Both the position numbers and the translations under genes were made by a program. From a virus: 64,000 bases of DNA. Location: positions 32,001 to 96,000 of the IMG/VR virus record IMGVR_UViG_3300034073_002585; one strand, given 5' to 3'. Within the stretch, counting starts at the first letter, position 1, and every line of letters begins with the position of its first letter. The notes under the pieces were generated by a model. The model had not been told where the DNA came from, made no database searches, and was given only the letters and a program-made list of their open reading frames with translations. Shown in pieces: positions 1-29,222 of the stretch.

Positions 1-244
1 CAATATGACAAAGAAGACTGGAACTCGCTGCCTGAAGTAGACGAGAAGACTTTAGCTAAATTTTTATACCAGGACATGGTTAGGGTAAATCACTTACTTC
101 ACCCAGAGTACGAAAGCCAAAAGCAGGTAGAGCGAGACAAAAAAGCAATGGCTGCTAAAGAGAATATCTACGCAGTAGCTGCCAAACTTGACTTAGAAGT
201 AGAGGCTCAGCCCTGTGGTATAGAACCAAAACTTGTAGAGAACG

Positions 245-784
245 ATGAAGTACAGGCCTAAATTAATTCCAAAGCCATTTAGTAAAGTGGACATGGATGA
301 CATCTTTAGGCTTGTCAGAAGTGATGAGTACCAGAGAAAATACTTTGATGGTAGACACTCCAGAGATTTAGCTAGATTTAATGAGCTTGAAGTTTATAAC
401 CAAAAGCTAGAAAAGATTGCTAGAGAAGTCTTTAATGACCCTACGCTAAAGGGTACTTACAGCGTATATATTGATTACGATAAAAAAGACTCGAATCTAA
501 CAATGCATAAGGACCAGAACGCTTGCGTCTATACAATTGATTATTGCGTATCGGCTGATTTTGATTGGCCTCTAACTATAGAAGATGAAGATTTTGTCAT
601 CCCTGTGGGACAAGCAATAGCTTTTATGGGTGGAGATGACCTTCATGGGAGAAAGCCTAAAACCAGAGACGGGAGGGTAGAAAACATAATGTTTCACTTT
701 TGCCCTGCGGACCACTGGTACTTCACTGAGGGTCCTGACTACATTAAAGTTTTAGCCGCTGAGGGCAAGCTAGCCGAGTATTAG
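245..784 (+). CDS. 2OG-Fe(II) oxygenase-like protein
   Basis: HKD...H...R double-stranded beta-helix pattern (MHKDQNAC, LHGR); paralogous to 1035..1577. Confidence 0.65.
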   Translation: MKYRPKLIPKPFSKVDMDDIFRLVRSDEYQRKYFDGRHSRDLARFNELEVYNQKLEKIAREVFNDPTLKGTYSVYIDYDKKDSNLTMHKDQNACVYTIDYCVSADFDWPLTIEDEDFVIPVGQAIAFMGGDDLHGRKPKTRDGRVENIMFHFCPADHWYFTEGPDYIKVLAAEGKLAEY

Positions 785-1020
785 TCTTCCCATTCCAGTC
801 CCCTGGTGTGAGCCCTCCAATATGCAGGGGGAAACTTATCCATCATGTCATCTGCCAACTCTAGGTTTTTATAAACTAAAATGTAGTGGACGCACCTATT
901 ATCATCAGCTGGAAAACTATCGTGAGTGTGGCAGATGGGAGCTGAGTTCCAACTTCTAGTTATGTCATATGTAAGCCACTCGTCGAAAGTCATCTCTTCT
1001 TTGACTGGCGTTGGTTGCAT
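781..1020 (-). CDS. hypothetical phage protein
   Basis: Fills the gap between two + strand genes; MTFDEWL...CHTHD pattern looks like a real small protein. Confidence 0.45.
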   Translation of the reverse strand: MQPTPVKEEMTFDEWLTYDITRSWNSAPICHTHDSFPADDNRCVHYILVYKNLELADDMMDKFPPAYWRAHTRGLEWED

Positions 1021-1034
1021 GATAGAATTCTATC

Positions 1035-1577
1035 GTGTTTGAGCCAGTCACCATAGATAATGTTTTCGATAAAGAGGACCTACTGTTCCTCAGACTGATG
1101 CTTGCTGATAAAGATAAGTACTACAGATACTTTTACGACAATAATTGTAAACGCCACATGGGGTATCTAAAAGTTCTAGAAGGCTACTTTGGAAAGAAAC
1201 TAGAACCTCTTGCTAGGAAAATATTCAAAGACGATACTCTACAGACAACCTTTGGGGTTTATTGTAGGTATGACTCCCCAGAATCGTTCTTGCCTGAACA
1301 TAAAGATAAGCATGCCTGTACATACAATATAAGTTATTGTTTATCTCAGGATAAGCCTTGGTATCTAAAGATTGATGGAAAACTATATCAAATAGATGAG
1401 AATGAACTTGTTGCATACTCTGGTACTGATTCCGTTCACGGGAGAGGTCCTATGAGGGAAAGTGAAAACTCTGAAGTAGAGATGTTATTCTTTCATTTTG
1501 CCCCCAAAGATAGCTGGTACTTCGACCATTGCGAGGATTTTAGGTTAGACTATGACTATGTTCCCACTAGTAATTAA
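1035..1577 (+). CDS. 2OG-Fe(II) oxygenase-like protein (leaderless)
   Basis: EHKDKHAC...VHGR...FFHF; TAGAAT -10 box 6 nt before GTG. Confidence 0.65.
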   Translation: MFEPVTIDNVFDKEDLLFLRLMLADKDKYYRYFYDNNCKRHMGYLKVLEGYFGKKLEPLARKIFKDDTLQTTFGVYCRYDSPESFLPEHKDKHACTYNISYCLSQDKPWYLKIDGKLYQIDENELVAYSGTDSVHGRGPMRESENSEVEMLFFHFAPKDSWYFDHCEDFRLDYDYVPTSN

Positions 1578-2232
1578 AAACTTTGTGTCTAAAGAGGATG
1601 CAGAAACTATAATTAAGCATCTTGACCCGAAAACTCAGGAAACTCCGCGAGAGGGTATTGCTGTAGCTTTGGGCTGGAGAAACTCTATTGAGGCAAAAAA
1701 AGCTGGCATTTTTGAGCCAGTATGCGGTGACCTCCCTAAAGATGTTTCAGACATGTTAGACGATGTGTTTAACAGAACTAAAAGTAAATTTGAAGAAGTA
1801 TTTGGGCATGAGGCAGCTTTAACTCAGGCTAACTACCAAAACATGACTATCGGCGGTAAAAATGATTTACACTCTGACACCACTAACTTAGATGGAACTC
1901 CGCTACAACCAGACGGGACTCCTGAAGAGATGGAGTGGTCTGGCCTCATCTACTTAAATGATGCAAAGACAGACTACGAAGGCGGAGCTATAGTCTTCCC
2001 AAAGCAGGGCGTAGAGCTGTACCCAGAGACAGGAGATTTTGTACTATTTCCTGGGGACATAGACCACGTGCATCTTGTCACTACGGTAACTTCTGGTGAG
2101 CGCAAGAATCTAGTGTTTTTCTACGGAAGACCTGAAAACGTTGGCTCAGAGAAAAGTTTTTACAATTGGCAGGACCTCCCTCCAGAAGAGCAAGAAAGAA
2201 TCAGGAGAGAGTCTGGAAATGTCAACAATTAA
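1552..2232 (+). CDS. prolyl-4-hydroxylase-like 2OG-Fe(II) oxygenase
   Basis: HSD, IYLND..YEGG, H.V..VTSGER motifs. Confidence 0.8.
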   Translation: MTMFPLVIKNFVSKEDAETIIKHLDPKTQETPREGIAVALGWRNSIEAKKAGIFEPVCGDLPKDVSDMLDDVFNRTKSKFEEVFGHEAALTQANYQNMTIGGKNDLHSDTTNLDGTPLQPDGTPEEMEWSGLIYLNDAKTDYEGGAIVFPKQGVELYPETGDFVLFPGDIDHVHLVTTVTSGERKNLVFFYGRPENVGSEKSFYNWQDLPPEEQERIRRESGNVNN

Positions 2233-2917
2233 GTTTAGAGATGATGTAACCGTTGAACTTGTCCAATGGATGGGTGATGATGCCAGTGTAGTTAAAGCTG
2301 CACGAGTGTCTACTGGTGGTGGAACTTCTACTCCTGAAAAAGATAATGGGCTAATTAACTATTTAATGCGTGACCGCCACGGCACTCCTTTCGAGCACAA
2401 TGGCTTTACGTTCTACATCGAGGCACCTATCTTTGTTTTTCGTGAGTTCATGCGTCACAGGATTGCCTCATACAATGAGGAAAGTGGGCGCTACAAAAAA
2501 CTGGAGCCAGTATTCTATGTCCCAGATGAGAATCGTGGACTTATTCAGTCTGGCAAGCCAGGAGCCTATGAGTTCTATCAAGGCTCTCATAACCAGTGGC
2601 TAACGGTAAAGCAGGAGACAATCGAAGCTTGCAGGAAGTCATATGAAGCTTATGAGAACATGCTAGACGCGGGTATTGCTAGGGAAGTAGCTCGTGGAGT
2701 TCTCCCAGTAAATCTATACTCATCTATGTTTGTCACGATGAATGCCCGTGCTTTGATGAACTTCTTGAGCCTGAGGACTAAGCGTGATGGTACGCACTTC
2801 CCTAGTTTCCCTCAGCGAGAGATTGAGATGGTTGCGGAGAAGATGGAAGAGCTGTGGGCCAAGAAGATGCCTGTTACCTACGACTTATTCAACCAGCATG
2901 GTAGAGTAGCTCCATAA
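2219..2917 (+). CDS. thyX: flavin-dependent thymidylate synthase
   Basis: RHRIASYNEESGRY ThyX signature, AARVS, HGTPFEH; start moved to ATG 2219 behind AGGAG. Confidence 0.95.
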   Translation: MSTIKFRDDVTVELVQWMGDDASVVKAARVSTGGGTSTPEKDNGLINYLMRDRHGTPFEHNGFTFYIEAPIFVFREFMRHRIASYNEESGRYKKLEPVFYVPDENRGLIQSGKPGAYEFYQGSHNQWLTVKQETIEACRKSYEAYENMLDAGIAREVARGVLPVNLYSSMFVTMNARALMNFLSLRTKRDGTHFPSFPQREIEMVAEKMEELWAKKMPVTYDLFNQHGRVAP

Positions 2918-3207
2918 TGGATAAGAACGACTTTACACCTGAAGACATGGACCTCTTTACTCACAGCATTGCTGCTGTAATTGAGAAGCAAGAGGGAGCC
3001 TATAAAGCTATTAGTGCTTTAGTTGACGCTGCAGGGGAGTCATGGTTTGAGCTTGGTGAAAAGCTTGAGCGAAATAGGACCCTAGAAATACTTGACAGTT
3101 TTGAAGCAAAGCTAGTAGACTCTGAGGAAGATGCAAAAATGACGATTGCAATTCTTAGAAAGTTGATTTCAGATGGCGGGCAAGAAGAAGACGGAGCAGG
3201 AGAGTAA
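2917..3207 (+). CDS. hypothetical protein
   Basis: ORF coupled to thyX by a TAATG overlap. Confidence 0.65.
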   Translation: MDKNDFTPEDMDLFTHSIAAVIEKQEGAYKAISALVDAAGESWFELGEKLERNRTLEILDSFEAKLVDSEEDAKMTIAILRKLISDGGQEEDGAGE

Positions 3208-3553
3208 GTCTCCTAAAATAAAGCGGGTATTCAAGCCCGAACGTTGTACTAGCCACAAGTTTATTGTCGAATCTGATGGCCGCGTTGATATGGCCGCATC
3301 CCATGAAGTTACTGACGATTCAATTTGTTTTAATTGTGGACTTTACTTTTCTACTTGGACATGGTACAGTAACAAAATAAACGCAAGTTTTTGGAAGGGT
3401 GTCGACAATGAAGCTGGTCAGACGATTAATTACATCGCTCAGGACTTGGACTCAAACCTGGATAGACTTGCAAGCGATTGGGGAGCCAATCTACTCGAAA
3501 AGCTCCGAGAGAAAAGGAAGAAAAATGGAAAACGAATTCAACTATTCGACTGA
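3173..3553 (+). CDS. hypothetical protein
   Basis: ORF in a tightly packed operon. Confidence 0.6.
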   Translation: MAGKKKTEQESKSPKIKRVFKPERCTSHKFIVESDGRVDMAASHEVTDDSICFNCGLYFSTWTWYSNKINASFWKGVDNEAGQTINYIAQDLDSNLDRLASDWGANLLEKLREKRKKNGKRIQLFD

Positions 3554-3689
3554 CCAGATGGCTGAGATTTTTGCTCGGCTAGAGGTTGCCAAGCTTCTTA
3601 TGAAGATGGGGTCAGATATGGCTAAGCAGGTCGAGACTGATATTAAGTTTTATCGAATGACCAATAATATGGGAATTGAAGATGAGTAA
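3525..3689 (+). CDS. hypothetical protein
   Basis: ATG 3525 preceded by AAGGAAG; overlaps neighbours. Confidence 0.55.
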   Translation: MENEFNYSTDQMAEIFARLEVAKLLMKMGSDMAKQVETDIKFYRMTNNMGIEDE

Positions 3690-3906
3690 TGGGCCGCTCG
3701 TCACTATCGGTGATGCAGCCAAAATGGGAAACATTCACCGCGAGACTATCCGCAAATACATTGAGGCTGGATACCTAAAGACTTATATGGACGGATTTAT
3801 GGTCTACTACAGAGACGTACTTCGAGCTTCTAGAATTGCTGACCAAAAGCACAAGGCTAGCTCGGGGAAAGCGAGCAAAAACTACGGGAAGAGAAAGGAA
3901 GCCTAG
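3676..3906 (+). CDS. helix-turn-helix (excisionase/MerR-like) DNA-binding protein
   Basis: TIGDAAKMGNIHRETIRKYIEAGYL HTH_17-like pattern. Confidence 0.7.
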   Translation: MKMSNGPLVTIGDAAKMGNIHRETIRKYIEAGYLKTYMDGFMVYYRDVLRASRIADQKHKASSGKASKNYGKRKEA

Positions 3907-4023
3907 TTATGGAAGACTTTATGAGAGACACTTTGGGGTCTGCGTGGGCGTACTACGTTGCGTTTGGCATCTTATTTATTTGGTGGATTGCAGAGAAAAC
4001 TAATAGAAAAAAGTAAGTTAACT

Positions 4024-4563
4024 ATGAGATGGCAAGAAGAGTTAAACGCCAAGCGCCTTAAGACGAAGGGCTGGTATGGGTGCATCGCACCTGATGGCTG
4101 GAAGTGGATTATTGAAGATGCTGACAGGATACTGGCCAAGCTGGACCCTGAGTATGAGATTCACCAGGTCAAGGAAAAATTCGGAACGCTTCGCTATTAC
4201 TACGGAACCGTGGCTGATTGGGAAACTCAGGAGGTAATGGACGCCGTTATTGATAGAGCAGAGATGCTGTCGGCAAAGACATGCGATGTGTGCGGGAATT
4301 CGAGTGCAATGTCTAATTTGGATAGAGGGATTAAGTATGACCCTACTGCTGTACTTAAATCCACTGGTGGATGGTACAAGACTATCTGCGACAGCTGTGA
4401 TACTGAGGGTAGATACGTTAGCGTAGACGCCCTTAATGACAGAGCGCAATACGACGACCTAGAGTTTTATGCTGAGAAAGCAAGGGAGCAAGTTCAGGAG
4501 GGGCAGGATATTCTGGACGTGTTTCTAGCGATTGCAAAGAAAGACATGCTAGATGAAGATTAA
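4024..4563 (+). CDS. hypothetical phage protein (QVKEKFGTLRYY family)
   Basis: GW...QVKEKFG.LR.Y...CxxCG...CxxC pattern typical of a widespread phage family. Confidence 0.7.
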   Translation: MRWQEELNAKRLKTKGWYGCIAPDGWKWIIEDADRILAKLDPEYEIHQVKEKFGTLRYYYGTVADWETQEVMDAVIDRAEMLSAKTCDVCGNSSAMSNLDRGIKYDPTAVLKSTGGWYKTICDSCDTEGRYVSVDALNDRAQYDDLEFYAEKAREQVQEGQDILDVFLAIAKKDMLDED

Positions 4564-4909
4564 GAATGGTGCTGCTCGGAACTCAATGAGCGAGTTTGAA
4601 CGCCAATGTTATGACTGGGGTTGGCGGGATGCCGAAGCTGAGGTAGTTAAGTATCTAAAGGAACGAGCTGAGGACCTTAGGGCATGCCACAAGAATGACA
4701 GTTGTTCAGATATTGCGTACGTTCTTGAGGGATGTATCGAGGATATTCAGGAAAATGTGGATACCGATTTTCAGGAAAACCTGAAAAGTGACCTGCCCGA
4801 TTATCACTGCCCGTCGTGCAGAGATATAAGTTGTATGCACTGTTTTTGCGTAGGACCTACAGCCTGTGAGTCTTGTAAAGAGTTTTCTGAAAAGGAGCTA
4901 GATGAGTGA
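4553..4909 (+). CDS. Cys-rich hypothetical protein
   Basis: ORF with C-terminal CxxC pairs. Confidence 0.6.
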   Translation: MKIKNGAARNSMSEFERQCYDWGWRDAEAEVVKYLKERAEDLRACHKNDSCSDIAYVLEGCIEDIQENVDTDFQENLKSDLPDYHCPSCRDISCMHCFCVGPTACESCKEFSEKELDE

Positions 4910-5081
4910 CGAACTAGAAGAAGGCTACAAGCATCTTGCTAATGACCCTAAATTTGTTAGACCTAATAGAGGTAAGCACCACTGCGGATTTGACTTTGAA
5001 CTTGACAAAATGACTGCAGTATGTAAGTGTGGAGCTATAGCAACAAATCCGTTGTGGATAATCAAAGGAGAGCAGAAGTGA
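4902..5081 (+). CDS. small protein, cassette 1 of the IKGEQK array (59 aa, absent from ORF track)
   Basis: Manual translation MSDELEEG...PLWIIKGEQK*; AAGGAG RBS upstream. Confidence 0.7.
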   Translation: MSDELEEGYKHLANDPKFVRPNRGKHHCGFDFELDKMTAVCKCGAIATNPLWIIKGEQK

Positions 5082-5251
5082 GCAGAGAGGAACACCTAAC
5101 TGAAATGATTCGCCTTGAACAAGAGATTGTTCAGGAAAACGAGAGTCACGAATGGGCTGGCTTTGACTCAGGTTGGACAGACTGCACTTGTGGCGCAACT
5201 GTTGCCGACTTAGAGAAACACATTGAACAAATCAAAGGAGAGCAGAAGTGA
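5078..5251 (+). CDS. small protein, cassette 2 of the IKGEQK array
   Basis: GTG start within the repeat; ends EQIKGEQK*. Confidence 0.7.
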   Translation: MSREEHLTEMIRLEQEIVQENESHEWAGFDSGWTDCTCGATVADLEKHIEQIKGEQK

Positions 5252-5391
5252 AACTTCACTATCACAAGCAACGCTGGCTGAAGTCCCAACGCAAAAAGCA
5301 AATCCTTAGCCTGTTCATTCCAATTGGTGGCGGCATTGGTCTAGTGGTATTAGGGCACGAAATCGCACTAATCAAAGGAGAGCAGAAGTGA
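5248..5391 (+). CDS. small protein, cassette 3 of the IKGEQK array (47 aa, absent from ORF track)
   Basis: Manual translation MKLHYHKQ...IALIKGEQK*. Confidence 0.65.
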   Translation: MKLHYHKQRWLKSQRKKQILSLFIPIGGGIGLVVLGHEIALIKGEQK

Positions 5392-5588
5392 CTGGCTCAG
5401 GAGCGAGGGCAAGGCAAAAGGCTAAGCGTGAAGCATGGCTAAAAAACATGCCATACCCTGGATTCACCTGCAAGGTTTGCAAACATGAGGACATGATGCA
5501 CTTTATGTGGGCAGGTTATTGCATTTTAGAAAACTGTGATTGCAAGAGTATGGATGGCATCGCACTAATCAAAGGAGAGCAGAAGTGA
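5388..5588 (+). CDS. small Cys-rich protein, cassette 4 of the IKGEQK array
   Basis: Ends IALIKGEQK*; CxxC and CxC motifs. Confidence 0.7.
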   Translation: MTGSGARARQKAKREAWLKNMPYPGFTCKVCKHEDMMHFMWAGYCILENCDCKSMDGIALIKGEQK

Positions 5589-5734
5589 ATCCAGAAGACA
5601 TTGCAAAAATGATTGACGCAGTTGCTGCATATGGCGAACTGCTTGGCGGTATGAAAAAGAAGTTTATTGCAGAGGGATTCTCTGAGGAGACGGCAGAAGC
5701 TTTGGTTGTAGAGATTCTAAGGAAGATGAGCTAA
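5585..5734 (+). CDS. small hypothetical protein
   Basis: GTG start inside the last 22-bp repeat. Confidence 0.65.
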   Translation: MNPEDIAKMIDAVAAYGELLGGMKKKFIAEGFSEETAEALVVEILRKMS

Positions 5735-6066
5735 TGAGTTTTGAAAGATTTGCTAGCTCTGACATTTACATCTATGAGCATGTAGGCGGGTTTATCGAGT
5801 GCTGTGGATGCTCGATGGCTTTGCCAGATGATTTGGATATGTTTGGATTTGCCCACCTGAAAACTCCGCGTGAGGCGTTGGCGCACTTGGATTTGCATGA
5901 GGAGCGAGGCGACGACATCGGTGGAGCTAGGCGTAGAATTGAAAAAGAGTACGAAGATTTAGACGCGCCTATTGAACCTTACGTAAGGTCAGAGGAAGAT
6001 GAAGCTAGAATTAGAGCGATAATGAAGGATAGGTGGAATGCCAGAGAAGAAGACTCACACGGTTAA
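5734..6066 (+). CDS. hypothetical protein
   Basis: TAATG-coupled ORF. Confidence 0.65.
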   Translation: MSFERFASSDIYIYEHVGGFIECCGCSMALPDDLDMFGFAHLKTPREALAHLDLHEERGDDIGGARRRIEKEYEDLDAPIEPYVRSEEDEARIRAIMKDRWNAREEDSHG

Positions 6067-6334
6067 AGAGGTAGATAGGCTTACCGCTGAAAGTGTTATT
6101 GAGGGTTTTTGTATTGCATATGATGCGATGGATAAAACTCTTGACCAGATGATGCGTGGCATTAGTGAGACCATGAGCATCTACATGAGGGAAGACCTAA
6201 ACAGGTATAAGGACAAGGTCGATGAGCTACACCTTATGTATACGGTTTTGCAGGCAGTAGCTGAAAAGTATGAGGGAATCCACTACGAGAAGCTTCAGCA
6301 GTTGAAGTCGGACTTGAACATTGATGATAATTAA
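6038..6334 (+). CDS. hypothetical protein
   Basis: ORF in packed operon. Confidence 0.6.
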   Translation: MPEKKTHTVKEVDRLTAESVIEGFCIAYDAMDKTLDQMMRGISETMSIYMREDLNRYKDKVDELHLMYTVLQAVAEKYEGIHYEKLQQLKSDLNIDDN

Positions 6335-6623
6335 GACTGCTACTGGTTCTTGTTATGAAATTGATGAGCGTGGTATCTGCCGCAAGTTCGACAGTGAGGG
6401 CCGTGGAATAGACGCCTTTAAAGCTTTAATGATAAAAGGTGTGCCTAAAGATGTACAAACTTTTGCTGGAGCAATAGAAGCGCCGTTTTGTGAACCAGAA
6501 GTTGGTATGAGATTGTATGCAGCTGGTATTGATGGTTGGTGGTTGAGTACTGAGATTGTAGAGATTCTATCCGAAGAAGCCTGGCCACCACGTCGATTTA
6601 GAGATGCGAGCAACGGCGAATGA
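6321..6623 (+). CDS. hypothetical protein
   Basis: ORF in packed operon. Confidence 0.6.
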   Translation: MMIIKTATGSCYEIDERGICRKFDSEGRGIDAFKALMIKGVPKDVQTFAGAIEAPFCEPEVGMRLYAAGIDGWWLSTEIVEILSEEAWPPRRFRDASNGE

Positions 6624-6749
6624 TGTGGGCCATTTACTCTGGTGAAACTCCCTTTATATTGGGAGAAAATCTGCAAGACTTAACTCGTACTTGTGACGAG
6701 TTAAATAGTAAACTAGACTTTGAATTCACCATAAAAGAATGGATTGTGA

Positions 6750-7211
6750 ATGGCTGATTGGGAACTAGACCCTGAGGATTACATAACTCTTCGTGATGAA
6801 GTCATTGAAGAATATGAAATTGACTGGTCAAATGGCATCAGTAATGATGAGATGACCCAAGAAGACTTTGACCGTCTATCAGAACTCCACGATAAAAAGC
6901 TAGTTTGGACTGAGCATGGGACCTGCGAGGACAACTGGCTAGCTGCTGGATTTACCCAGTATGGAGAATGCGAGCTGCTTGGGCACGAGTCGAGTGGTTG
7001 TGGTTGTTGGCAGTCTTACTCTTACTATGTGGCAAAGAAACCTTGGGTAAATGAAAATGAGCACGTACTTGTAACTGCAACGTTGCCTTGCTCTGTCTGC
7101 AATCCTGACGGAGACGGTGATGGCGTTGAAGGATGTGAAGGTCCAGAGGTGCCTGAGGGTGCAGATAGGTCCGAATGTTCATTCGGCACTATTAATTGGT
7201 ATTTCGACTAG
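6750..7211 (+). CDS. acidic Cys-containing hypothetical protein
   Basis: ORF, 153 aa. Confidence 0.65.
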   Translation: MADWELDPEDYITLRDEVIEEYEIDWSNGISNDEMTQEDFDRLSELHDKKLVWTEHGTCEDNWLAAGFTQYGECELLGHESSGCGCWQSYSYYVAKKPWVNENEHVLVTATLPCSVCNPDGDGDGVEGCEGPEVPEGADRSECSFGTINWYFD

Positions 7212-7227
7212 GATAAACTAAGTACCG

Positions 7228-7503
7228 TTGTTTAGGAGGAACATGAAAATTATAGTTAATAAGTGTAACCACGGGTTCACTTTGTCTGAAGCTCAGAAGG
7301 AGCTGTTCCCAGACGGATATGTTGACAGAACAGACCCTCGCCTAATTGCTTCATTTGAAGCGGGAGATAATCGTGGAGATGGTGGTTCTACCTTAGTTTT
7401 AATGGAAATCCCTGATGAAGCTGATGGCTACCACATTGTAGAGAACGATGGAATAGAAACTCTCTACTGGATGTCTGGGTCTACCTTAACTGAAGTTGGT
7501 TAG
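7228..7503 (+). CDS. hypothetical phage protein
   Basis: GF.LS...RTDPRL pattern; true start probably the ATG after AGGAGG. Confidence 0.6.
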   Translation: MFRRNMKIIVNKCNHGFTLSEAQKELFPDGYVDRTDPRLIASFEAGDNRGDGGSTLVLMEIPDEADGYHIVENDGIETLYWMSGSTLTEVG

Positions 7504-7511
7504 ACTTAGCT

Positions 7512-7781
7512 ATGTCAGTTGAAGCTGTAGGAGAAACTTCCTGGGTAGATGACTACGGTCACATCATTGTAAATGTGCATAAGCGCAATCAGTGTAAGAA
7601 TGACTACTGCACAATTCACAATCAATCTAAACACCACATGGTTGAGTTCCCTCAGCGGTGGCGTCAAGATAAGCATATGATGGAACGAATTTGTCCACAC
7701 GGTGTGGGTCACCCTGACCCAGATGAGATATCATTGGACACGGTCCATGGGTGTGATGGGTGTTGTTCAGATGAGTTATGA
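7512..7781 (+). CDS. Cys/His-rich phage protein
   Basis: CTIHN...MERICPHGVGHPDPD...HGCDGCC. Confidence 0.7.
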   Translation: MSVEAVGETSWVDDYGHIIVNVHKRNQCKNDYCTIHNQSKHHMVEFPQRWRQDKHMMERICPHGVGHPDPDEISLDTVHGCDGCCSDEL

Positions 7782-8028
7782 CGACGGATACGAGACTATA
7801 GAAATATCTGAAGAAGATATGTCTGAGGCTCAGAAGCTTATAGTAGAAGGCTTTATTCGTGAAGGTGAGTTCAAGACTAGAGCTGCTTTAATTAATATGC
7901 TAATCAAAGACATAGATTCTTATCTAGATGAAGTTGACTATGAACCTAATCTAGACTGGGTAAACGGTGTTCGTTATGCCATCCACATAATAAGAGAGGC
8001 CAAGCTTAATGGACTCGCAGGAGACTGA
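7771..8028 (+). CDS. hypothetical protein
   Basis: ATG overlapping the previous gene end. Confidence 0.55.
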   Translation: MSYDDGYETIEISEEDMSEAQKLIVEGFIREGEFKTRAALINMLIKDIDSYLDEVDYEPNLDWVNGVRYAIHIIREAKLNGLAGD

Positions 8029-8491
8029 AAGATTTTTATATAGGTTTGAATATTATGAACCTGAAGATAACCGTACGTATGTAGACTGGATTTGGCTAAC
8101 TCATGAAGAGCTTAAAGACCATAAATCTAGCTACAATGAAGTAAAAATTCGTTTAGCCACAGAAGACGAGTCAGACCTCTATAACGAAGCCTATGCAGAC
8201 GGCTATGGTATAGCTGCAATGATGGAGTTTGAGTCTCAATACGACGGAATTACTTTCAGGGTTGAGTTGGGTAAAGATGGTCAACTCGACATGAATGGTA
8301 AAAAGATGTTTGAGTGCGCCATCTGTGAGAAGCATAAAGACTTTGAAACTGAAGTAGGAACTGCTGCTGGTCTATATTTGGGTGAAGTAAAGAATGACAA
8401 ATTGTGGCATGTGTGCTACGACTGTGCAGAAAACGCCGCTATGTTAAGGGCAATAGAGGATTCCATAGATGACACTGAAGAACCGAGCTAA
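8009..8491 (+). CDS. hypothetical protein with CxxC pairs
   Basis: ORF, 160 aa. Confidence 0.65.
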   Translation: MDSQETERFLYRFEYYEPEDNRTYVDWIWLTHEELKDHKSSYNEVKIRLATEDESDLYNEAYADGYGIAAMMEFESQYDGITFRVELGKDGQLDMNGKKMFECAICEKHKDFETEVGTAAGLYLGEVKNDKLWHVCYDCAENAAMLRAIEDSIDDTEEPS

Positions 8492-8747
8492 AAGAATTGC
8501 TGCTCCATATTTAGCTCAGTACAAGCGTTCGCCAGCCTGGGTTAAGGTCGCGACAGTAACACTGATTACACTTATTCTTTTACCAGACCCTTTTGATTGG
8601 TTTCCAGGAATAGCCTTCCTTGACGAGGTTATGTACGCTACTATACTCTTAAAGCTTCTTCATAAATATGGCGCTTTGCCTCACGAGGAGAAGAAGAGTG
8701 CTAAAGATTTGATTAAGGAGATATTCGAGAAAGATGAAGCTAGATGA
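8469..8747 (+). CDS. DUF1232/YkvA-like membrane protein
   Basis: ILLPDPFDWFPGIAFLDE resembles the DUF1232 P.D.IPD.IP..G.LDD motif. Confidence 0.55.
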   Translation: MTLKNRAKRIAAPYLAQYKRSPAWVKVATVTLITLILLPDPFDWFPGIAFLDEVMYATILLKLLHKYGALPHEEKKSAKDLIKEIFEKDEAR

Positions 8748-9021
8748 TTTTAAGACGATTGCACACAGCTACTACGACTTTGCAGAAGATGTTCTCGTCA
8801 AAAAGCAAAACGACTACGGTCCTACTAATATTAGCCGCAGTCCTGGCGGCCCCCTTAATGGTCTTCGTGTTCGCATACATGATAAGGTATCAAGGATTAA
8901 CCATCTTATCGACTCGGGCGCAACGCCAGAAAACGAAAGCCTAAAGGACTCTTTTCTAGACTTGGCTAACTACAGCATTATTGCGATGATGGTATTGGAT
9001 GGCGAATGGCCAGAAAAGTAA
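8734..9021 (+). CDS. nucleotide modification-associated domain protein (DUF1599-like)
   Basis: KKQNDYG...RIHDKVSRI...DSFLDLANYSII. Confidence 0.8.
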   Translation: MKLDDFKTIAHSYYDFAEDVLVKKQNDYGPTNISRSPGGPLNGLRVRIHDKVSRINHLIDSGATPENESLKDSFLDLANYSIIAMMVLDGEWPEK

Positions 9022-9659
9022 ACGTATCTTACGAAAGCCTTCGCCAAGAGGGACGCGAAGAAGTTCTTGACTGGTTAGTTAAGAATGAGGTAATTGCCTA
9101 CAGTAAACCAGAAAACAGCTACTTTGTTTGGAATAGGCACACCGAGTGGTTACTGATGCTTCCCTGGAAAAAGGATGAATCCAAATAGCACTTAGTAGAC
9201 GTTGGTACGATTGTATAAGTAAAAACGTCGAAAGGCATTTATGGTTATGCATCCCCCTGCATTTGCATCTCAAAAAGAGGAGCAAGACAAGTGGAACGAA
9301 GGCTTTGTAGCTGGAGTTAAGGAAGTCCTACATGAGCTTGAGTCTAAACTTGACCCTAATGACCATGAAGGCCCTACCCGTAAATGGGTAGAAGAAACTT
9401 CTGCCAAACTTTTAAATAAGTACGCCTAGGCCCCTGATGGGGACACCCTTTAAAAATAATGACGTCCCCGAGCTGCTCGGTAAGTTCGTACACTTTGCTT
9501 CACCTAAATTCCCTAGTGACCCTCCATGTGTAAATGGTGAGGTAAAATATATACAAGCATCTAAAGAACCTCACGTAGTTTATTTAGAGCCTTTTGGTCA
9601 GAACTATTTGGTGCGAGTTGATGTACACTGTTACGAAATAGCCGAAAGGATTGCGGAAC

Positions 9660-9950
9660 ATGAGCAGCATTCGAGCCACTGAACGTCAGATGCGAAAGCT
9701 CCAGACTCAGCGTCATTTATATGACATTAAGATGATGGTCCTTGGTAATCCTCTATTTAAGAACCTGTCTGAGCGTGACCAGAAGAAACTTGTAAAGCTT
9801 ATCTATAAAGCTGAAATGATGGAAACTTATATGCGTGATAAGCAGATTATCCGTATTAACGATGACTTTGAAAGTATTGTCCAGAACGTAGCCGACATGC
9901 TAAATGATGCTATGCAGCAAGATGATGATGAAGAAGGCGAACGCTACTAA
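9660..9950 (+). CDS. hypothetical protein
   Basis: Last gene of the + strand run. Confidence 0.55.
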   Translation: MSSIRATERQMRKLQTQRHLYDIKMMVLGNPLFKNLSERDQKKLVKLIYKAEMMETYMRDKQIIRINDDFESIVQNVADMLNDAMQQDDDEEGERY

Positions 9951-10222
9951 AAGCTGTCTGGACCGCCACCACTTAGGGTAGCTCCATACTGAGTACTAGG
10001 GGTTCCGCCATTTATTGTGTTAGCTCCCCCCGCTTCTTCTAACATTCCTAACTCGATTAGAGCTTCGTTAATGTCTAAAGAACGCTGAGGAGTCCAACTA
10101 GAACCGTTGTAGGTGTAGATGTTATCTTCATCAGACCTGTAAAAAAGTTCTCCCTCTTCTGCGGTAGCAGGAAACGAGGTCCCAGCTGGGAGACCTATAG
10201 GGGTAAGAAACTTTTTTGCCAT
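9947..10222 (-). CDS. small virion/tail-fibre-like protein
   Basis: P.TAEEGELFYRSDEDNIYTYNGSSW tail-fibre repeat-like segment; leaderless TACAAT promoter. Confidence 0.55.
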   Translation of the reverse strand: MAKKFLTPIGLPAGTSFPATAEEGELFYRSDEDNIYTYNGSSWTPQRSLDINEALIELGMLEEAGGANTINGGTPSTQYGATLSGGGPDSF

Positions 10223-10240
10223 CCTTTAATTGTACAGCAT

Positions 10241-11173
10241 TTAGTAAAGGTTCTTATTAATAGCCTCGCGTAGAGCAGAGATTGTCTGTGGCCCCCATGA
10301 GCCATCGACACGACCTTCGTAAACACCTTTAGCAATCAAGCGACGCTGTACGCCCTTATAGGTGTTTGCTCCTGGAATTCCGTCTACTGCACCATTGTAG
10401 CCATTAGCAACCACTGAGCGCTGAAGAGCCTTGTAGGTCATAACTCCTGGCTCTCCGTCAATTGCTCCAGCGTAACCGTGGTCGCGCTTTAGAATTTCTT
10501 GGAACTTCTTCCAATCTTCTACAGTAAGTTCGCGAGAGGTGTCTGCAACTAAAGGCTTAACTTCCTCTACTTTAGCTACTGGCTTTTCTTCTACCTTTTC
10601 AGCTGGCTTTGGAGCTTCTCCCTTAATGATTGCCTTAGCTTCCTTCTTAGTTACCTTTGGAGCAACAGCACCGCCATTAGCAATGATTGCCTTCTTGAGG
10701 TCAGACTTGTCAGCAGTCATTCCGAAGACAGCCTTAACGGTCTTGCCCAAAGTTGCATGGAGGTGGGCGCCCGAGCTCGCTAGCCCTGTGTTCCCAATCG
10801 TCAGCCCGTGAGAAACATCGCCAGCTTTAACCTTGTCGCCAACCTTAACCTTTAGAGCGAGGTCCTCGTCGTGACCGCCTTTGCAGTTAATTCCGTGCTT
10901 TGCGCATGAAAGGTGGCAGTAGCCGATGTACCAGATTTTTCCGTTCTTGTCAGCTGCAGTCTGAACTACAACCCAGCCGAGGATGTCTGACCACTTTGCG
11001 AGCTTGATTGTGCCATCAGCGATAGCTGGGATTAAAGTCTTACCCTTGTTTGAGCCAGCTGGTGCCCAGTCGGTACCAGAGTGTGCTTGCATCTTGTTCT
11101 TACGTCGGTAGTCCGACATAGTTCCGTACTCGCCTGTGATTGATTTCTCAGGAAATGGCATTACCCAGGACAT
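10241..11173 (-). CDS. endolysin: M23 peptidase plus peptidoglycan-binding repeats
   Basis: HSGTD, YCHL, GNTG..SGAHLH M23 motifs; three DG..G..T..ALQ repeats. Confidence 0.9.
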   Translation of the reverse strand: MSWVMPFPEKSITGEYGTMSDYRRKNKMQAHSGTDWAPAGSNKGKTLIPAIADGTIKLAKWSDILGWVVVQTAADKNGKIWYIGYCHLSCAKHGINCKGGHDEDLALKVKVGDKVKAGDVSHGLTIGNTGLASSGAHLHATLGKTVKAVFGMTADKSDLKKAIIANGGAVAPKVTKKEAKAIIKGEAPKPAEKVEEKPVAKVEEVKPLVADTSRELTVEDWKKFQEILKRDHGYAGAIDGEPGVMTYKALQRSVVANGYNGAVDGIPGANTYKGVQRRLIAKGVYEGRVDGSWGPQTISALREAINKNLY

Positions 11174-11488
11174 TTAGTTTCCTCTCGTTTAGCCTATTTT
11201 TGGCTGTTGTGTGGCAGTAATTAAGCATGTATGTTCTTGTAAATTGAAAGTACTCTTGCCAGTACCTATCCGTCCAGTGAGGATTGCGCTGGATGCACCA
11301 GTTTCGTGCAGCGATTTGTGCACGCTTGCGGGCCTCTTTAGTGTCTGCTTGGAAGAAGTAGAGCACGTAGAGGAGTAGGTGGGAGAGTCCTCTCATACTT
11401 ACATTTTACATTAGGTGCAAAAAGATGATTTGATTTAAATATGTACAAGATACTTGACAAATATTTATTTTGTAGTATCGTATTCCAC

Positions 11489-12940
11489 ATGAACCGTTTA
11501 CTTAAAACAACCGCTACGGTTGCTGCCATATCATTACTAATCACTGCTTTGCCTGCGGCTGGGTCTGAGGTGCAGTCATCTTCTGTCGTACTTAGTGGAT
11601 TTACTAGTAGCTATGTGGGCTCTGCTCAGCGTTCTGAATTACAAAAAGTATCTGAGTTGTCGGACCAGTTAACTTCTGTCACGTGCTTGTCCTACCTGTC
11701 TAAAGGGAAAAAGAGTCTAGCTAAAAACAATAAAACTAAAAAGCAGGCTAATAGTGTGTGCTCATACATTAAATCACTAAGCCCTGACGTAACTGTAAAG
11801 CTATCTTCATGGTCTACAAATAAAACTTCTCTTGCTGGAAGAGTAAAAGTGTCATACACCTATACAGCTGCTGAGGGGGATTTAGTTGACAACTCCCTAC
11901 TTTCATCTTTAGATGTGTGCAGGCTTCAGAAAATAAAGATTAATGGTGGGGGAAATCAGGGACTACCTTGGGGCACCAGAAATACTAGGCAACCATTAGG
12001 CACTATCCCTATGCCCATCGTGTTTATAGAGTTCCCTGACGCAAAGGCGACTATGTCTGTAGAGGAGCGTGAGCCTAATCTAGAGAAGAACATAGAAGAG
12101 TGGAGCAGTTATATCTCTAGAGACAGGGTATTTTTTGATGTTCAAATCCACAAGCAGTGGCTGATGGCCCCTAAGCCTTATAGCTGGTACACCAGAGACA
12201 ACAACATGCAATCTCTACAACAAGCTGTTGACCAGTTAATTGCTGTTGCTGACCCTTACTATGATTTTTCTGGTGCCGAAATAATCAACTTTGTATTTTC
12301 TGATACATCAAAGAATGATGGTCTCTATGGAGATGCAATTGTAAAAGCTGATGGATTAAACGAAACTACATTTATATTTGGTGCCTACAACAAATTCTTA
12401 CATGAATCATTGTGGGACTGGATTATCCACGAAATACTTCACCCTCTAGGTTTTCTTGGGCATGGCCCAGATAACGGTGGAAAGCTCGGGATTCTAATGT
12501 CTCAGTGGAATGCTTCCGAGGCAGTAACTAGCTGGGAAGGTTTCTTGGCGGGCTGGTATAACGAAGAAGAAGTAGCTTGTGTGGACACAGAGTCCATGCC
12601 TAGTTCGTTTAACTTTAAGTTGAACTCTCTAGATAACTTTGCTGATGGATACGAAAGCTTGATTCTGAAACTAGATAGCAAGACTGCCATAGTTGTGGAG
12701 TACAGAAGTAGTGATAACTACGGCTATAAAGGACTGGCATCTCCTATTTTGACTGCTTATAGGGTAAACCAAGACAGAGATGCTATTAGGTGCGATATGT
12801 GCAACCAGCTTGAACTAGAGCAGAAAAACTGGTGGGCGTACCTACGTGACAATGGCAACATAGGAATAAAGACTCAGGTGGTATATGAAGGTATAACCAT
12901 TAAGAACCTGGGCAATGGCAACTTTGAAGTTTCTAAGTAG
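11489..12940 (+). CDS. secreted zinc metalloprotease-like protein
   Basis: Signal peptide after ATG 11489; IHEILHPLG HExxH; TTGACA at 11454. Confidence 0.65.
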   Translation: MNRLLKTTATVAAISLLITALPAAGSEVQSSSVVLSGFTSSYVGSAQRSELQKVSELSDQLTSVTCLSYLSKGKKSLAKNNKTKKQANSVCSYIKSLSPDVTVKLSSWSTNKTSLAGRVKVSYTYTAAEGDLVDNSLLSSLDVCRLQKIKINGGGNQGLPWGTRNTRQPLGTIPMPIVFIEFPDAKATMSVEEREPNLEKNIEEWSSYISRDRVFFDVQIHKQWLMAPKPYSWYTRDNNMQSLQQAVDQLIAVADPYYDFSGAEIINFVFSDTSKNDGLYGDAIVKADGLNETTFIFGAYNKFLHESLWDWIIHEILHPLGFLGHGPDNGGKLGILMSQWNASEAVTSWEGFLAGWYNEEEVACVDTESMPSSFNFKLNSLDNFADGYESLILKLDSKTAIVVEYRSSDNYGYKGLASPILTAYRVNQDRDAIRCDMCNQLELEQKNWWAYLRDNGNIGIKTQVVYEGITIKNLGNGNFEVSK

Positions 12941-22290: not shown

Positions 22291-22893
22291 ATGTTTAAGA
22301 CTGATGACAGCGCAATTAAGCTTGCTGGAGAAATTTACCTATTTAAGAACTTTGCATCGCCCGAAGAATGTTCATCAATAGTCGCGTCGCTCGAAACATT
22401 CTCCCCAAACGGCTGGTCAAACGAAACAAACTACGACGAAACCTCAGAAGTTATCCCCCACCTTCAGGTAGTTAAGGGCGCTGACGTATTCGAACTGAAC
22501 AGGCGTCTATCAAATCTTGTTGCCCCAGACTTTGAACCACTACCCAATAGTTCCCTCAACCGACTATTAACTGGACAATCGCTGCAAGAACACTGGGACT
22601 CTCCTGGAGAGGACGCAGTTCTTCCTGACGATATCTCAGACCCATACCACACCTGCCACATAGTTAAGTACGGCGCAGTTGTTTATCTATCTGAATTTGA
22701 GGGCGGCGAGATTTACTACAGCGAACAAGGAATTGAATATAAACCAGAAGTTGGTGACCTGGTAATTCACTCCTCATTCCCAGACTATAAGCACGGTGTT
22801 CGTGAAGTCACTAGTGGCGTCCGCTATGTTTACTCAACCTTCCTAATTGATAAAGGGCGCGTAGAACTGCCGTCCCTAGCCAAGGAAGGCTAA
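22291..22893 (+). CDS. prolyl-4-hydroxylase-like 2OG-Fe(II) oxygenase
   Basis: HWD, VYLS.FEGGE, HGVREVTSGVRY. Confidence 0.85.
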   Translation: MFKTDDSAIKLAGEIYLFKNFASPEECSSIVASLETFSPNGWSNETNYDETSEVIPHLQVVKGADVFELNRRLSNLVAPDFEPLPNSSLNRLLTGQSLQEHWDSPGEDAVLPDDISDPYHTCHIVKYGAVVYLSEFEGGEIYYSEQGIEYKPEVGDLVIHSSFPDYKHGVREVTSGVRYVYSTFLIDKGRVELPSLAKEG

Positions 22894-23028
22894 TCAACCG
22901 ATGAAACTTACCCTACAATTGATGGAGAAGGCGGCCCGTTTACAGTCCTCTCCCCAGTTAAGCGGGTCGTCTTCCCTATTGACGGCCGTTCGCTCTAAGA
23001 GAAATCACTTGACAGAAAACGGTTACAT

Positions 23029-24249: not shown

Positions 24250-25104
24250 ATGAAACTCAGAAAAACTCAGGACCCAGCAGCTGCGGCAGAACTTTTCATT
24301 AAAACTGCACAGCAGTACTTGGGCTACACTGTTGACCTGGGCGGCCGAAACATCTTTGGCCAGAAGGTTGGTTACGACGCAGAGCCATGGGCTGGAGCAT
24401 TTGTTGATGTCTGCGCCAGGGAGGCAGGCCTCCAGCTGCCAAGTTTTACGTATACTGGAGCGGCGCTCGCAGAATTCATTCGCAGCGGAAACTTTTCACG
24501 AGAAGCACAGCCTGGCAGCATTGCTGTGTTCAACTTTTCATCAAATGTTGGACATGCGGCGGACTCTTTCTCAATGCCACACTGTGGGATTGTTGTTGAT
24601 GTCCGCGAGTTCCAGGACACTGGGAGATTCATTACTGTTGAAGGCAACACTGAAGGTAGCGGCGTTTATCAAAAGAAAGACGGCGTGCACCAGAAAGTGC
24701 GCAGCATCAACGATGTAATTATTTTTTGTTTACCGTACGCAGCGGGCGGCCAAACTTTTAACGAAAGATTAATTAAGCTCCTGGACCGCGGCCGCACAAA
24801 GTTTGACGGCTCGGATATCGAAGTCATCAACGAAGCGGCGAGCGCCGTTCAATCGCTGAAGCTTGATAAAGAGATAAAGCACGGTGACCGTAACAAGAAG
24901 ATAGAAATCATCCAGCTAGCGCTAGCAACAGTGACGGACCTGCGCGGAGCTGAACCAGGTAAGTGGGACGCAATAACAGCAGCGGCCTGCTCAAGGTATC
25001 AACGGATGATAGGATATGTAGGTAAAGACGCGAGCGGCCTGCCAGACGTAAACACGCTGAGACGGTTAGCTCGCGAGACAGGACTGTTCAGACTCGATGC
25101 TTGA
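24250..25104 (+). CDS. CHAP-like amidase with peptidoglycan-binding domain
   Basis: PWAGAFV, HCGIV, TVEGNT; the usual catalytic Cys of PWC appears replaced by Ala. Confidence 0.7.
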   Translation: MKLRKTQDPAAAAELFIKTAQQYLGYTVDLGGRNIFGQKVGYDAEPWAGAFVDVCAREAGLQLPSFTYTGAALAEFIRSGNFSREAQPGSIAVFNFSSNVGHAADSFSMPHCGIVVDVREFQDTGRFITVEGNTEGSGVYQKKDGVHQKVRSINDVIIFCLPYAAGGQTFNERLIKLLDRGRTKFDGSDIEVINEAASAVQSLKLDKEIKHGDRNKKIEIIQLALATVTDLRGAEPGKWDAITAAACSRYQRMIGYVGKDASGLPDVNTLRRLARETGLFRLDA

Positions 25105-25306
25105 CGACATAACGGGTACCAGGGAAGCTCATCACTACCCAGAGCATGGGAGTAATGTCATCATGACGGTGTACACCAAGTGCCCCACCAAGTGGTTGCT
25201 CGTCGACCGAGAGACTGGACAGGTCTACCAGGGGTCTCCTCATGGTGATTGGGACAAACTTATCCCGCGGGTTGATGAGACTAAAAAGAAGGATTTCAAT
25301 GCTTAA
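25097..25306 (+). CDS. hypothetical protein
   Basis: TKCPTKWLLVDRETGQVY conserved-looking segment. Confidence 0.6.
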   Translation: MLDDITGTREAHHYPEHGSNVIMTVYTKCPTKWLLVDRETGQVYQGSPHGDWDKLIPRVDETKKKDFNA

Positions 25307-25649
25307 AGAATTTAATCTTGCTGACTACAAGTACGAAGAGAACGACATGCCATGGGAGGTGTGGAAGTCTTCCTTCTTGCCAACTAAGAACATCTTTAAA
25401 CCAGGCGGACCTCTAGATGGGTTCTTGTTCATTCATGAAGGCATTGACTGGAACTACGTTGTTGGCCAGTATGTTCAAAAGTTATGGACCCTCATCGAAG
25501 AAGATGGAAAGTTTTATCTGACTAATGGTCTCTACGTAAAGGGCCGAGTTGGCTACGTAGTGTGCGAAAGAATGCACAACCCTCGAGAAATCTTTAAAGT
25601 GCGGATACCAGAATCTTTCATTGAAAGTCTGCCGCCAAGGGAGCACTAA
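25299..25649 (+). CDS. hypothetical protein
   Basis: Likely start MLKEF overlapping the previous stop. Confidence 0.6.
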   Translation: MLKEFNLADYKYEENDMPWEVWKSSFLPTKNIFKPGGPLDGFLFIHEGIDWNYVVGQYVQKLWTLIEEDGKFYLTNGLYVKGRVGYVVCERMHNPREIFKVRIPESFIESLPPREH

Positions 25650-26008
25650 TGTCTGATGACCAGACCACTGCTGAACAGTTCGCGCAGCGACTGGAGACAG
25701 CAAAAGAAGTAAATCAAACTTTAGCTCAATGTTTAAAAGATGGCCTGGCGGCGGACAATGAACTAGTTCAGCAAACCATCGGCAAGCACTACGAGTGGAT
25801 GAAAGAAATCACAATCCACGGCGGGCCCACCATCTACCGTCTTCTTGCTAAGCACATGCGCAATGACGAGAGATACGCCAGGATTTACGACGAGTACTAT
25901 GCTGAAGGCCTGACCGAGTTCATGGCTGCAGCAATTGATGTCTTTGCTGAAACTCTTACGGAAGATGACAGCAGCGGCGTGCACACTTCTGACCATCAGA
26001 ACATATAA
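25649..26008 (+). CDS. stand-alone TipAS antibiotic-recognition domain protein
   Basis: VQQ...HYEW...YRLLA.....DERY...YD....GLTEFMAAAI matches the TipAS pattern. Confidence 0.7.
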   Translation: MSDDQTTAEQFAQRLETAKEVNQTLAQCLKDGLAADNELVQQTIGKHYEWMKEITIHGGPTIYRLLAKHMRNDERYARIYDEYYAEGLTEFMAAAIDVFAETLTEDDSSGVHTSDHQNI

Positions 26009-26057
26009 CCGCGAGCGCCGATTTGCATCATCGGCCTGCCCTAGGTACACTAACGGC

Positions 26058-26477
26058 ATGCGCCTTGTTACCGCCCCTGAAGCAGCACGCGAGCTGTACA
26101 TCTCGATAGGCCTGCTCCACTACTGGATTCGAACGGGTCGACTCCAGAAGCACCCATACCCGCTAGCTGCGTCTACAGCAAAGGTCCGCAAGAAGACGGT
26201 GTCTCATCGACGCTTCATGGTTGATATAGACCAGGTCCGCAAACTCAGGCGGGCAGATGCTGAAGACCAGGTAAAACTTTTAAACAGTGATAAAAGATTG
26301 CTGCGGCCGCAAGAAGTCGCGAAGATTCTTGGCGTCACAGTTCAGAGGGTCTACCAGTGGGTGGCCCGCTATGAGCTAACCAAGTACAAAACAGGTTCTG
26401 ATACTTGCTACCTCGTTGATGGTGATGAGCTAGCTGACGCCCTTGAAGCAAATGGACTTGGTTATTTGGTGAAGTAG
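26058..26477 (+). CDS. tandem HTH DNA-binding protein
   Basis: Two HTH_17-like motifs; TACACT 6 nt before ATG 26058. Confidence 0.7.
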   Translation: MRLVTAPEAARELYISIGLLHYWIRTGRLQKHPYPLAASTAKVRKKTVSHRRFMVDIDQVRKLRRADAEDQVKLLNSDKRLLRPQEVAKILGVTVQRVYQWVARYELTKYKTGSDTCYLVDGDELADALEANGLGYLVK

Positions 26478-26677
26478 TGCTATAGTTAACTTCATGAAGG
26501 AATTCAGATACAGACTGCTGCCCGAGGCAGCGCTCCAGGCCTACACTGAAAATGGAATGCCAATAACTTTTGATGAAAAGTTATTAAACGGCGAGCTCAT
26601 TATCCAAGCTGAAGACCAGGAAACTGCCGATAAGTTTCGGATGACTTGTACCGACATACGGATGTGGGTTACCTCAG

Positions 26678-26956
26678 ATGAGTAGCTGCGGGTGCCAGGA
26701 CTATAGGTTCTTTAAATGTTTAGACTGTGCGGCGTGTACTCTGTGTATCGGCGAGTACTACATGGTGCACGACTCAGTCTGGGACCAGGTCGCTGACCGA
26801 GGTATGCTGTGTATCGGATGCCTAGAGGAACGGCTCGGGAAGCAGCTGAACGGTAGTGACTTTACGCTGTGCCCTTTAAATATAGGCAACATCTTTAACG
26901 GCTCGGCCAGACTCCAGGCCCGCATTGACATTCCACGAGAGTACCTAGTAGGGTAA
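26678..26956 (+). CDS. Cys-rich phage protein
   Basis: YMVHDSVW...LCIGCLEERLG..L...DF. Confidence 0.7.
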   Translation: MSSCGCQDYRFFKCLDCAACTLCIGEYYMVHDSVWDQVADRGMLCIGCLEERLGKQLNGSDFTLCPLNIGNIFNGSARLQARIDIPREYLVG

Positions 26957-26995
26957 CTCTAATCGCATAACGGCGTGCGCTGTATCCTAGTAAGC

Positions 26996-29183: not shown

Positions 29184-29222
29184 TTCAAGTAGATACTGAC
29201 ACAACAGGAAAAGAGGGACACC

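Follow-up and report, generated by a model that had tools for sequence, protein, structure and literature searches.

A repeated stop/Shine-Dalgarno/start linker between small genes of an uncultured actinobacterial phage and its probable role in cassette exchange

Introduction

The window analysed here is a stretch of 64,000 nucleotides (bases 32001-96000) of a 154,192-bp IMG/VR virus record, IMGVR_UViG_3300034073_002585, which has direct terminal repeats and is the genome of an uncultured 154-kb phage of actinobacteria. Near the start of the window, five small genes are joined by four copies of a 22-nucleotide (nt) repeat, here called the linker, and this report concerns that repeat and the small genes, or cassettes, that it connects. 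Positions are those of the window unless they follow the label of another sequence; G000 denotes the whole source genome, L with three digits a locus that bears the motif, and G001, G003, G004 and G005 further motif-bearing genomes or, for G005, a fragment.

The linker array

An exact-match search located four copies of AATCAAAGGAGAGCAGAAGTGA, all on the plus strand (5060-5081, 5230-5251, 5370-5391 and 5567-5588) and separated by 148, 118 and 175 nt, with 30 bp common to the third and fourth copies (5362-5391 and 5559-5588). Shuffling gave a chance expectation of 0.01 matches, and none of 100 shuffles yielded four. In each copy, the upstream open reading frame (ORF) ends with six codons for IKGEQK at bases 2-19 and a TGA stop codon at bases 20-22, while bases 5-11 form an AAAGGAG Shine-Dalgarno (SD) site followed by a 7-nt spacer. 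The next ORF, one frame back, begins at the GTG of bases 19-21, so that start and stop overlap as GTGA. The ORFs that end in the linker encode 59, 57, 47 and 66 amino acids (aa), and a fifth, of 49 aa, lacks the tail. An earlier note, made from the sequence and its ORFs alone, had described the same copies, spacing, reading frame and overlapping signals, and both the search and the ORFs bear it out. The features of the array are as follows.

4902-5081, plus strand: cassette gene 1, an ORF of 59 aa with the IKGEQK tail
5060-5081, plus strand: linker copy 1, an exact match; the gene 1-gene 2 adjacency recurs in the independent contig L133
5078-5251, plus strand: cassette gene 2, 57 aa, with its GTG start within linker copy 1
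5230-5251, plus strand: linker copy 2, an exact match
5248-5391, plus strand: cassette gene 3, 47 aa, with a hydrophobic segment, membrane-like
5362-5391, plus strand: linker copy 3 with an 8-nt 5' extension; the same 30-mer occurs in L012, L021 and L031
5388-5588, plus strand: cassette gene 4, 66 aa, Cys-rich
5559-5588, plus strand: linker copy 4 with an 8-nt 5' extension, an exact match
5585-5734, plus strand: gene 5, 49 aa, with its GTG at 5585 in linker copy 4; it is tail-less and closes the array

A fusion of the four ORFs by read-through or frameshifting was considered and rejected, as every step to the next gene shifts the frame by -1 and no slippery site is present. The rest of the 154,192-bp genome holds no further copy with up to six mismatches; hence, the linker is not the general ribosome-binding site of this phage. 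The earlier note had also called the four proteins unrelated. Genes 3 and 4 have a 9-residue tail alone in common, in keeping with that description, and it is slightly too strong for genes 1 and 2, which beyond the tail are weakly similar (31% over 48 aa, with a GFD...CxCGA motif) and may be distant paralogues.

Window genes 2-5 are, as judged from their divergence, real genes, because the ratio of nonsynonymous to synonymous substitution rates (dN/dS) against their homologues is 0.05-0.46 overall. Nine homologues of gene 2 were measured (dN/dS 0.06-0.46), and its family has eight different upstream partners. The homologue of gene 3 in L140 (91% aa identity, dN/dS 0.13) has different neighbours on both sides, and those of gene 4 in L190, L113 and L102 (86-95% aa, dN/dS 0.05-0.14) lie beside other neighbours as well; the homologues of genes 2, 3 and 4 are all flanked by linkers. 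The homologue of gene 5 in L173 likewise starts at a linker copy, with its downstream neighbour unchanged. Homologues of gene 1 (48-74% aa identity in L028, L133, L186, L191 and others) include both tailed and tail-less forms.

The five window proteins gave nothing significant in Pfam or PHROGs. Among 82 families of ORFs that follow a linker copy, about six have any Pfam match (an SNF2 helicase at an array end, a glutaredoxin and domains of unknown function), and none matches a recombinase, nuclease, HNH or RNA-binding domain in Pfam. If they resemble the small early genes of other phages, the cassettes may act on the host.

Spread of the linker and diversity of its partners

Exact copies of the 22-mer turned up in 27 stretches of IMG/VR and, across many projects, in at least 120 metagenome contigs. 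Among 185,579 bacterial species genomes it occurs in two short contigs of metagenome-assembled genomes alone, which are probably mis-binned phage DNA, and this search yielded no clue to the host and no host gene copied by the motif. The pooled set comprised 169 sources (1.2 Mb) with 199 exact copies, and most of the phages have one to a few copies.

The sequences flanking the linker are unrelated between contigs. The exact copies join approximately 103 upstream to approximately 101 downstream flank families, of which 34 and 40, respectively, have 2-8 different partners. Over the 181 distinct contexts of exact copies, 166 of 169 have 30 or more open codons in the upstream frame; downstream ORFs have a median length of 63 codons, and half of them terminate in another copy. 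Open frames on both sides identify the linker as a gene-to-gene junction, often in arrays. The earlier note had proposed to search relatives for the 22-mer and compare the content and order of their cassettes. With about 100 gene ends, about 100 gene starts and up to eight partners over the 169 sources, the outcome favours shuffling, and the fixed gene content and order that the note had named as the contrary result was not seen.

Probable crossovers at the linker

When positions 1-12000 were compared by blastn with the first 27 loci, the shared DNA consisted almost solely of the motif itself and gene 2. The gene 2 block (5059-5251, 193 bp) is common to L016 (92% nt identity) and L026 (89%), with breakpoints exactly at the linkers. 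In an all-against-all blastn comparison, homology tracts that reach a linker junction end there with a per-site mean of 0.90 (172 sites), against 0.54 (99 sites) at those RTGA overlaps of the same loci that have an SD site but are not linkers (Mann-Whitney p = 1e-13). Since the loci were themselves collected through the motif and many are related, neither sites nor counts nor p-values are independent.

Related contigs differ by single cassettes. Where the flanks are 88-100% identical, six clean insertions or deletions (indels) and two replacements have both ends in linker copies, and 22 further structural differences have one end in a linker copy. In the clearest pair, with flanks 99.3% and 98.2% identical, L196 reads A-linker-B and L166 A-linker-X-linker-B; at its 5' end the single copy of L196 agrees with the variant in the left copy, and the crossover therefore falls within the shared 19 nt.

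Other short sequences were observed in comparable positions. Cassette indels occur at other stop-SD-start words such as GCTAAAGGGGCAGAAATGA (L015:7480-7550, L083:3600-3790 and L028:6150-6455), and this phage group may use more than one linker. As such SD-containing microhomologies bound indels too, the linker would be the extreme case of a more general habit. In an unrelated phage family (a subset of L032-L080; contigs of IMG 3300045988, approximately 58 kb), the same 17-nt core, AAGGAGAGCAGAAGTGA, lies at one homologous junction; the upstream gene there is conserved, and several alternative gene starts come after it. Either an independent swap point or coincidence may account for this.

Proposed role of the linker

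In our view, the 22-nt repeat, which with its flanks extends to as much as about 30 nt, probably has two functions: as a portable linker it would couple the translation of promoterless small-gene cassettes, and through its short homology it would serve them as a crossover site. At the RNA level, it would give the upstream gene its last six codons and TGA, then an SD site, the 7-nt spacer and the overlapping GTG, and a ribosome ending one cassette could begin the next; with stop, SD and start all in the linker, a cassette between two linkers would be expressed without signals of its own. At the DNA level, identical linkers would offer sufficient homology for recombination within one genome or between co-infecting phages, including unrelated phages on the same host, and crossovers inside the linker would delete, insert, replace or reorder whole genes in frame. 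Cassettes with intact linkers would thereby stay both expressible and exchangeable, which would explain one consensus across a large shared pool. The gain, loss and shuffling of genes at a plug-and-play junction, as put forward in the earlier note, finds support in the gene 2 block, the partner diversity and the single-cassette differences bounded by linkers.

Several observations weigh against this reading, in addition to the non-independence of the sites. Linker copies are not involved in 45 of the 75 resolved structural differences in the same loci, some of which use other short SD-type microhomologies instead, and mosaicism is also high at the other junctions (the 0.54 given above). The recombination itself is deduced by comparing assembled contigs. 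In the tail, synonymous divergence falls to just about half that of the gene body (0.17 vs 0.37). Copies within a contig are as unlike as copies from different contigs (2.94 vs 2.92 differences), which speaks against gene conversion within a genome, and selection on function could equally keep the consensus. Finally, the motif is not unusually unpaired in predicted RNA, its accessibility being the same as that of its flanks. The equal divergence fits a well-mixed pool in which each cassette has its own copy, and we infer that intact linkers persist by keeping a cassette both translatable and exchangeable.

Constancy of the sequence

The strongest alternative starts from the sequence itself: the linker could be a specialised translation-initiation or regulatory site, similar to the Start-Associated Sequences (SAS) of Cluster K mycobacteriophages, that is bound by a phage or host factor (protein or RNA) controlling a regulon of small early genes, with shuffling incidental. 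Positions 1-4 vary freely among 181 non-exact variants and positions 5-22 are conserved; the conservation peaks over SD, spacer and start and decays towards the 5' end, as this account would have it, and A15, A17 and A18 of the spacer are almost invariant though unable to pair with ribosomal RNA. Some copies are retained untranslated, and with no homogenisation within genomes, selection must hold the consensus. SAS follow the same logic in other actinophages (PMC3203893). No candidate regulator was found, however: only about six of the 82 cassette families have a Pfam match, and none of these is RNA-binding. A shared phage-encoded one is unlikely given that phages sharing the motif have almost no common genes. 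The motif is also absent from all other gene starts of the 154-kb genome and lies nearly always in an ORF-ORF overlap. By itself, regulation would leave the breakpoint excess and the linker-bounded indels unexplained, and we regard it as an unlikely explanation of the repeat. A search of Rfam with window positions 4000-7000 gave no match at E <= 1.

The coding content of the linker raises a second alternative, in which the peptide is what is conserved: by way of a C-terminal tag, (L)IKGEQK, many unrelated small proteins would be treated alike (for example in proteolysis, localisation or docking to one partner), and the nucleotides would be secondary. The variants do carry a three-base period (20-35 changes at third codon positions, 3-21 at first and second positions), which indicates that the tail is under some coding constraint. 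Over 264 homologous pairs, the proportions of synonymous (pS) and nonsynonymous (pN) differences are 0.37 and 0.11 in the gene body and 0.17 and 0.04 in the KGEQK codons, a comparison biased by the 4-mismatch cut-off; for the tail, pN is 0.036 against a pS of 0.169, and synonymous variants that keep IKGEQK exist. The four copies of the window are, as the earlier note had it, free of synonymous differences; in the relatives, tails do diverge synonymously, at about half the gene-body rate.

The tail codons are nevertheless heavily skewed to those of the motif (GGA 148 vs GGG 12; GAG 145 vs GAA 11; CAG 140 vs CAA 15), far beyond what selection at the peptide level alone would give, and the Leu codon preceding the motif is nearly always CTA. 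In a few copies the core is retained despite a stop codon before or within the tail. Because of this codon skew and the copies kept behind a stop codon, selection on the peptide alone cannot, on these comparisons, explain the pattern. Homologues of one gene occur tailed and tail-less, and the tail is borne by a membrane-like protein, a Cys-rich protein and others. A peptide tag as the cause of the conservation is accordingly improbable.

Sharing across phage lineages and recombination genes

Three complete genomes that bear the motif, G001 (91.6 kb), G003 (50.1 kb) and G004 (48.7 kb), have no terminase like that of G000, while in the 42-kb fragment G005 the terminase is 84% identical to it. 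The three genomes contain one to four linker copies or variants, have a G+C content of 0.50 (vs 0.45 in G000) and have no more than 16-22 ORFs in common with G000. An M23 peptidase/peptidoglycan-binding endolysin (10241-11173, minus strand) is approximately 60% identical to its counterparts in all three, and this common endolysin suggests related hosts. The linker is a word common to unrelated phages that probably meet in the same cells.

An exonuclease gene adjoins a gene for a Sak4-like single-strand annealing protein at G000:117958-119654 (PF13479, 64.8 bits; phrog_124, 2.8e-33; phrog_1218). G003 and G004 likewise have Sak4-like genes, scoring above the family cut-off, on the strand of their linker copies and a few kb downstream of them. 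Phage annealing proteins of this kind promote recombination between short, diverged sequences (PMC5499656, PMC5928155), and the likely enzymes of exchange at the linker would be such phage single-strand-annealing functions, an exonuclease with a Sak4-like protein. RecA, RecT, ERF and tyrosine integrase (PF00589) are absent from G000.

The cassette-like layout of the array, together with a resolvase-family serine recombinase gene in G000 (22566-23006 of that genome, approximately 14 kb upstream of the array), could instead suggest that the cassettes are moved by a dedicated site-specific system: a serine recombinase, a homing nuclease or an integrase like that of integrons. We disfavour this and consider it very unlikely: the resolvase-family gene is missing from the complete motif-bearing genomes G001, G003 and G004, G000 has no tyrosine integrase, a recombinase or HNH domain occurs in none of the 82 cassette families, the linker has no dyad symmetry, no inverted or attC-like repeats are present at the junctions or cassette flanks, and the hybrid copy in L196 indicates a crossover in a plain stretch of identity. 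The likeness to a repeat-spacer array drawn in the earlier note is a loose one: a dedicated enzyme is absent and most phages carry only one to a few copies.

Repeats can also break or mis-join assembly graphs. In contigs L096, L117, L149, L165 and others the sequence stops close to a linker: four end exactly 34 nt past it (22 + 34 = 56), and another six have a copy within 35 nt of their end. These ends are branches of the assembly graph, with several contexts in one sample. That the array of the window is itself a chimera made by the short repeat is suggested by these ten copies near contig ends, where assemblers branch, and is the least credible explanation of all, given that the final k-mers of the usual metagenome assemblers exceed 22-30 bp, that the same type of junction occurs in well over 50 independent assemblies, that the gene 1-gene 2 adjacency recurs in L133, and that the record is a complete 154-kb genome with terminal repeats.

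To return to the portable linker, a further and more tentative proposal, to which we give somewhat less than even credence, is that it evolved as a standard of exchange, a translation-level equivalent of integron cassettes that needs no integrase and is common to unrelated lineages meeting in the same actinobacterial hosts. It would be kept as the cassettes that carry it spread and are expressed wherever they land, and the tail it encodes might have a use of its own as well.

Genomic setting

The large terminase of G000 is 74% identical (aa) to that of Actinomycetia phage DSL-LC01 and approximately 64% identical to those of large Microbacterium phages. DSL-LC01, from Dishui Lake and isolated on an actinomycete, is the closest cultured relative by terminase; in the first 45 kb of its record the genes are mostly non-overlapping. 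GenBank phages showed neither DNA similarity to the array region nor copies of the 22-mer, and DSL-LC01 is thus without it.

The array sits in a long run of small plus-strand genes, downstream of genes for a 2-oxoglutarate (2OG)-oxygenase-like and a thymidylate-synthase-like protein. Promoter-like and terminator-like sites are not enriched across positions 1-11500, which would fit a long polycistronic unit in need of coupling. No promoter-like site lies at any linker copy and no terminator-like site at the linker junctions.

Some other features of the window were recorded. The thymidylate-synthase-like gene (2141-2917, plus strand; phrog_85, 2.8e-76) and a gene for a DUF1599 'nucleotide modification associated' protein (8734-9021, plus strand) belong to the same operon as the array and hint at modified DNA bases. 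An ORF for a 729-aa catalase-peroxidase (KatG-like; 44163-46352, plus strand), with a Pfam peroxidase match of 1.7e-66 in two stretches, lies just upstream of the terminase. Between small genes at 24714-39988 (plus strand) there are 15 copies of TGTATTTATTTTTTGT-type 16-18-mers, accompanied by G-rich, T-tailed terminator-like repeats.

Comparison with known systems

The closest system in function is that of the promoter-early stem-loops (PeSLs) of T4-type phages, which are intergenic promoter and terminator units (Arbiol et al. 2010, PMC2839356; Comeau et al. 2014, PMC4122927). Like the linker, PeSLs are brief expression signals, repeated in plastic regions of the genome between small genes that are mostly ORFans, and are common to diverged phages. 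Recombination between copies leads to insertions, deletions and replacements of whole genes, as it apparently does at the linker; excised mini-circles have been shown for PeSLs (PMC2839356, PMC4122927). The linker differs in having neither the strong sigma-70-like early promoter nor the stem-loop terminator that define PeSLs. PeSLs act on transcription, whereas the linker lies within coding sequence and would act on translation through its stop/SD/start overlap.

The SAS of Cluster K mycobacteriophages (Pope et al. 2011, PMC3203893) resemble the linker in belonging to actinobacteriophages, in being asymmetric and of one orientation, and in placing an AGGAG core 3-7 bp before the starts of non-structural genes of different families, an arrangement that the linker shares. 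In SAS, too, some of the conserved positions are unable to pair with 16S rRNA, and many copies overlap the stop codon of the preceding gene. The SAS consensus is, however, a 13-bp sequence, GGGATAGGAGCCC, and the linker is a different word. SAS often occur with ESAS (17-bp inverted repeats upstream of some sites), which the linker lacks, and they have not been linked to gene shuffling and are confined to one phage cluster (PMC3203893). In the linker, start and stop codons belong to the repeat, which crosses phage lineages.

Integron cassettes (attC/IntI) are likewise small, unrelated genes in arrays; they have no promoters of their own, depend on upstream signals for expression and are exchanged as units. 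The linker system is without an integrase, the hairpin-forming inverted repeats of attC and an attI site, and exchange is apparently by plain short homology. With ordinary ATGA/GTGA stop/start coupling the linker shares, by its sequence, the 4-nt GTGA overlap and an SD site 5-10 nt upstream inside the upstream ORF; ordinary junctions vary by gene, whereas the linker is a fixed word of 22-30 nt across unrelated junctions and phages.

For decades it has been debated whether phage mosaicism has its origin in conserved linkers or in illegitimate joining at random that selection then sorts. For lambdoid phages, boundary or linker sequences were proposed (Susskind and Botstein 1978; Clark et al. 2001, as cited in PMC3029335), which in the terms of that citation would be short conserved sites at module boundaries that allow homologous recombination between otherwise unrelated DNA. 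The usual objection is that such sequences could not be found at most mosaic boundaries of lambdoid phages and mycobacteriophages (PMC3029335). Here, one exact 22-mer marks hundreds of boundaries across nearly gene-disjoint phages, with what would be a defined role in translation.

Our literature search brought up no earlier account of a stop/SD/start linker like this one within coding sequence, and what is new is that repeat-mediated modular shuffling, already known, occurs at a translational linker. It offers a testable model of how promoterless accessory genes, probably for host takeover or counter-defence, move through a phage community while staying expressed. The 22-mer is, in addition, a simple sequence tag with which the cassette pool can be retrieved from metagenomes, and a natural 'connector' that may become a tool for polycistronic constructs in actinobacteria.

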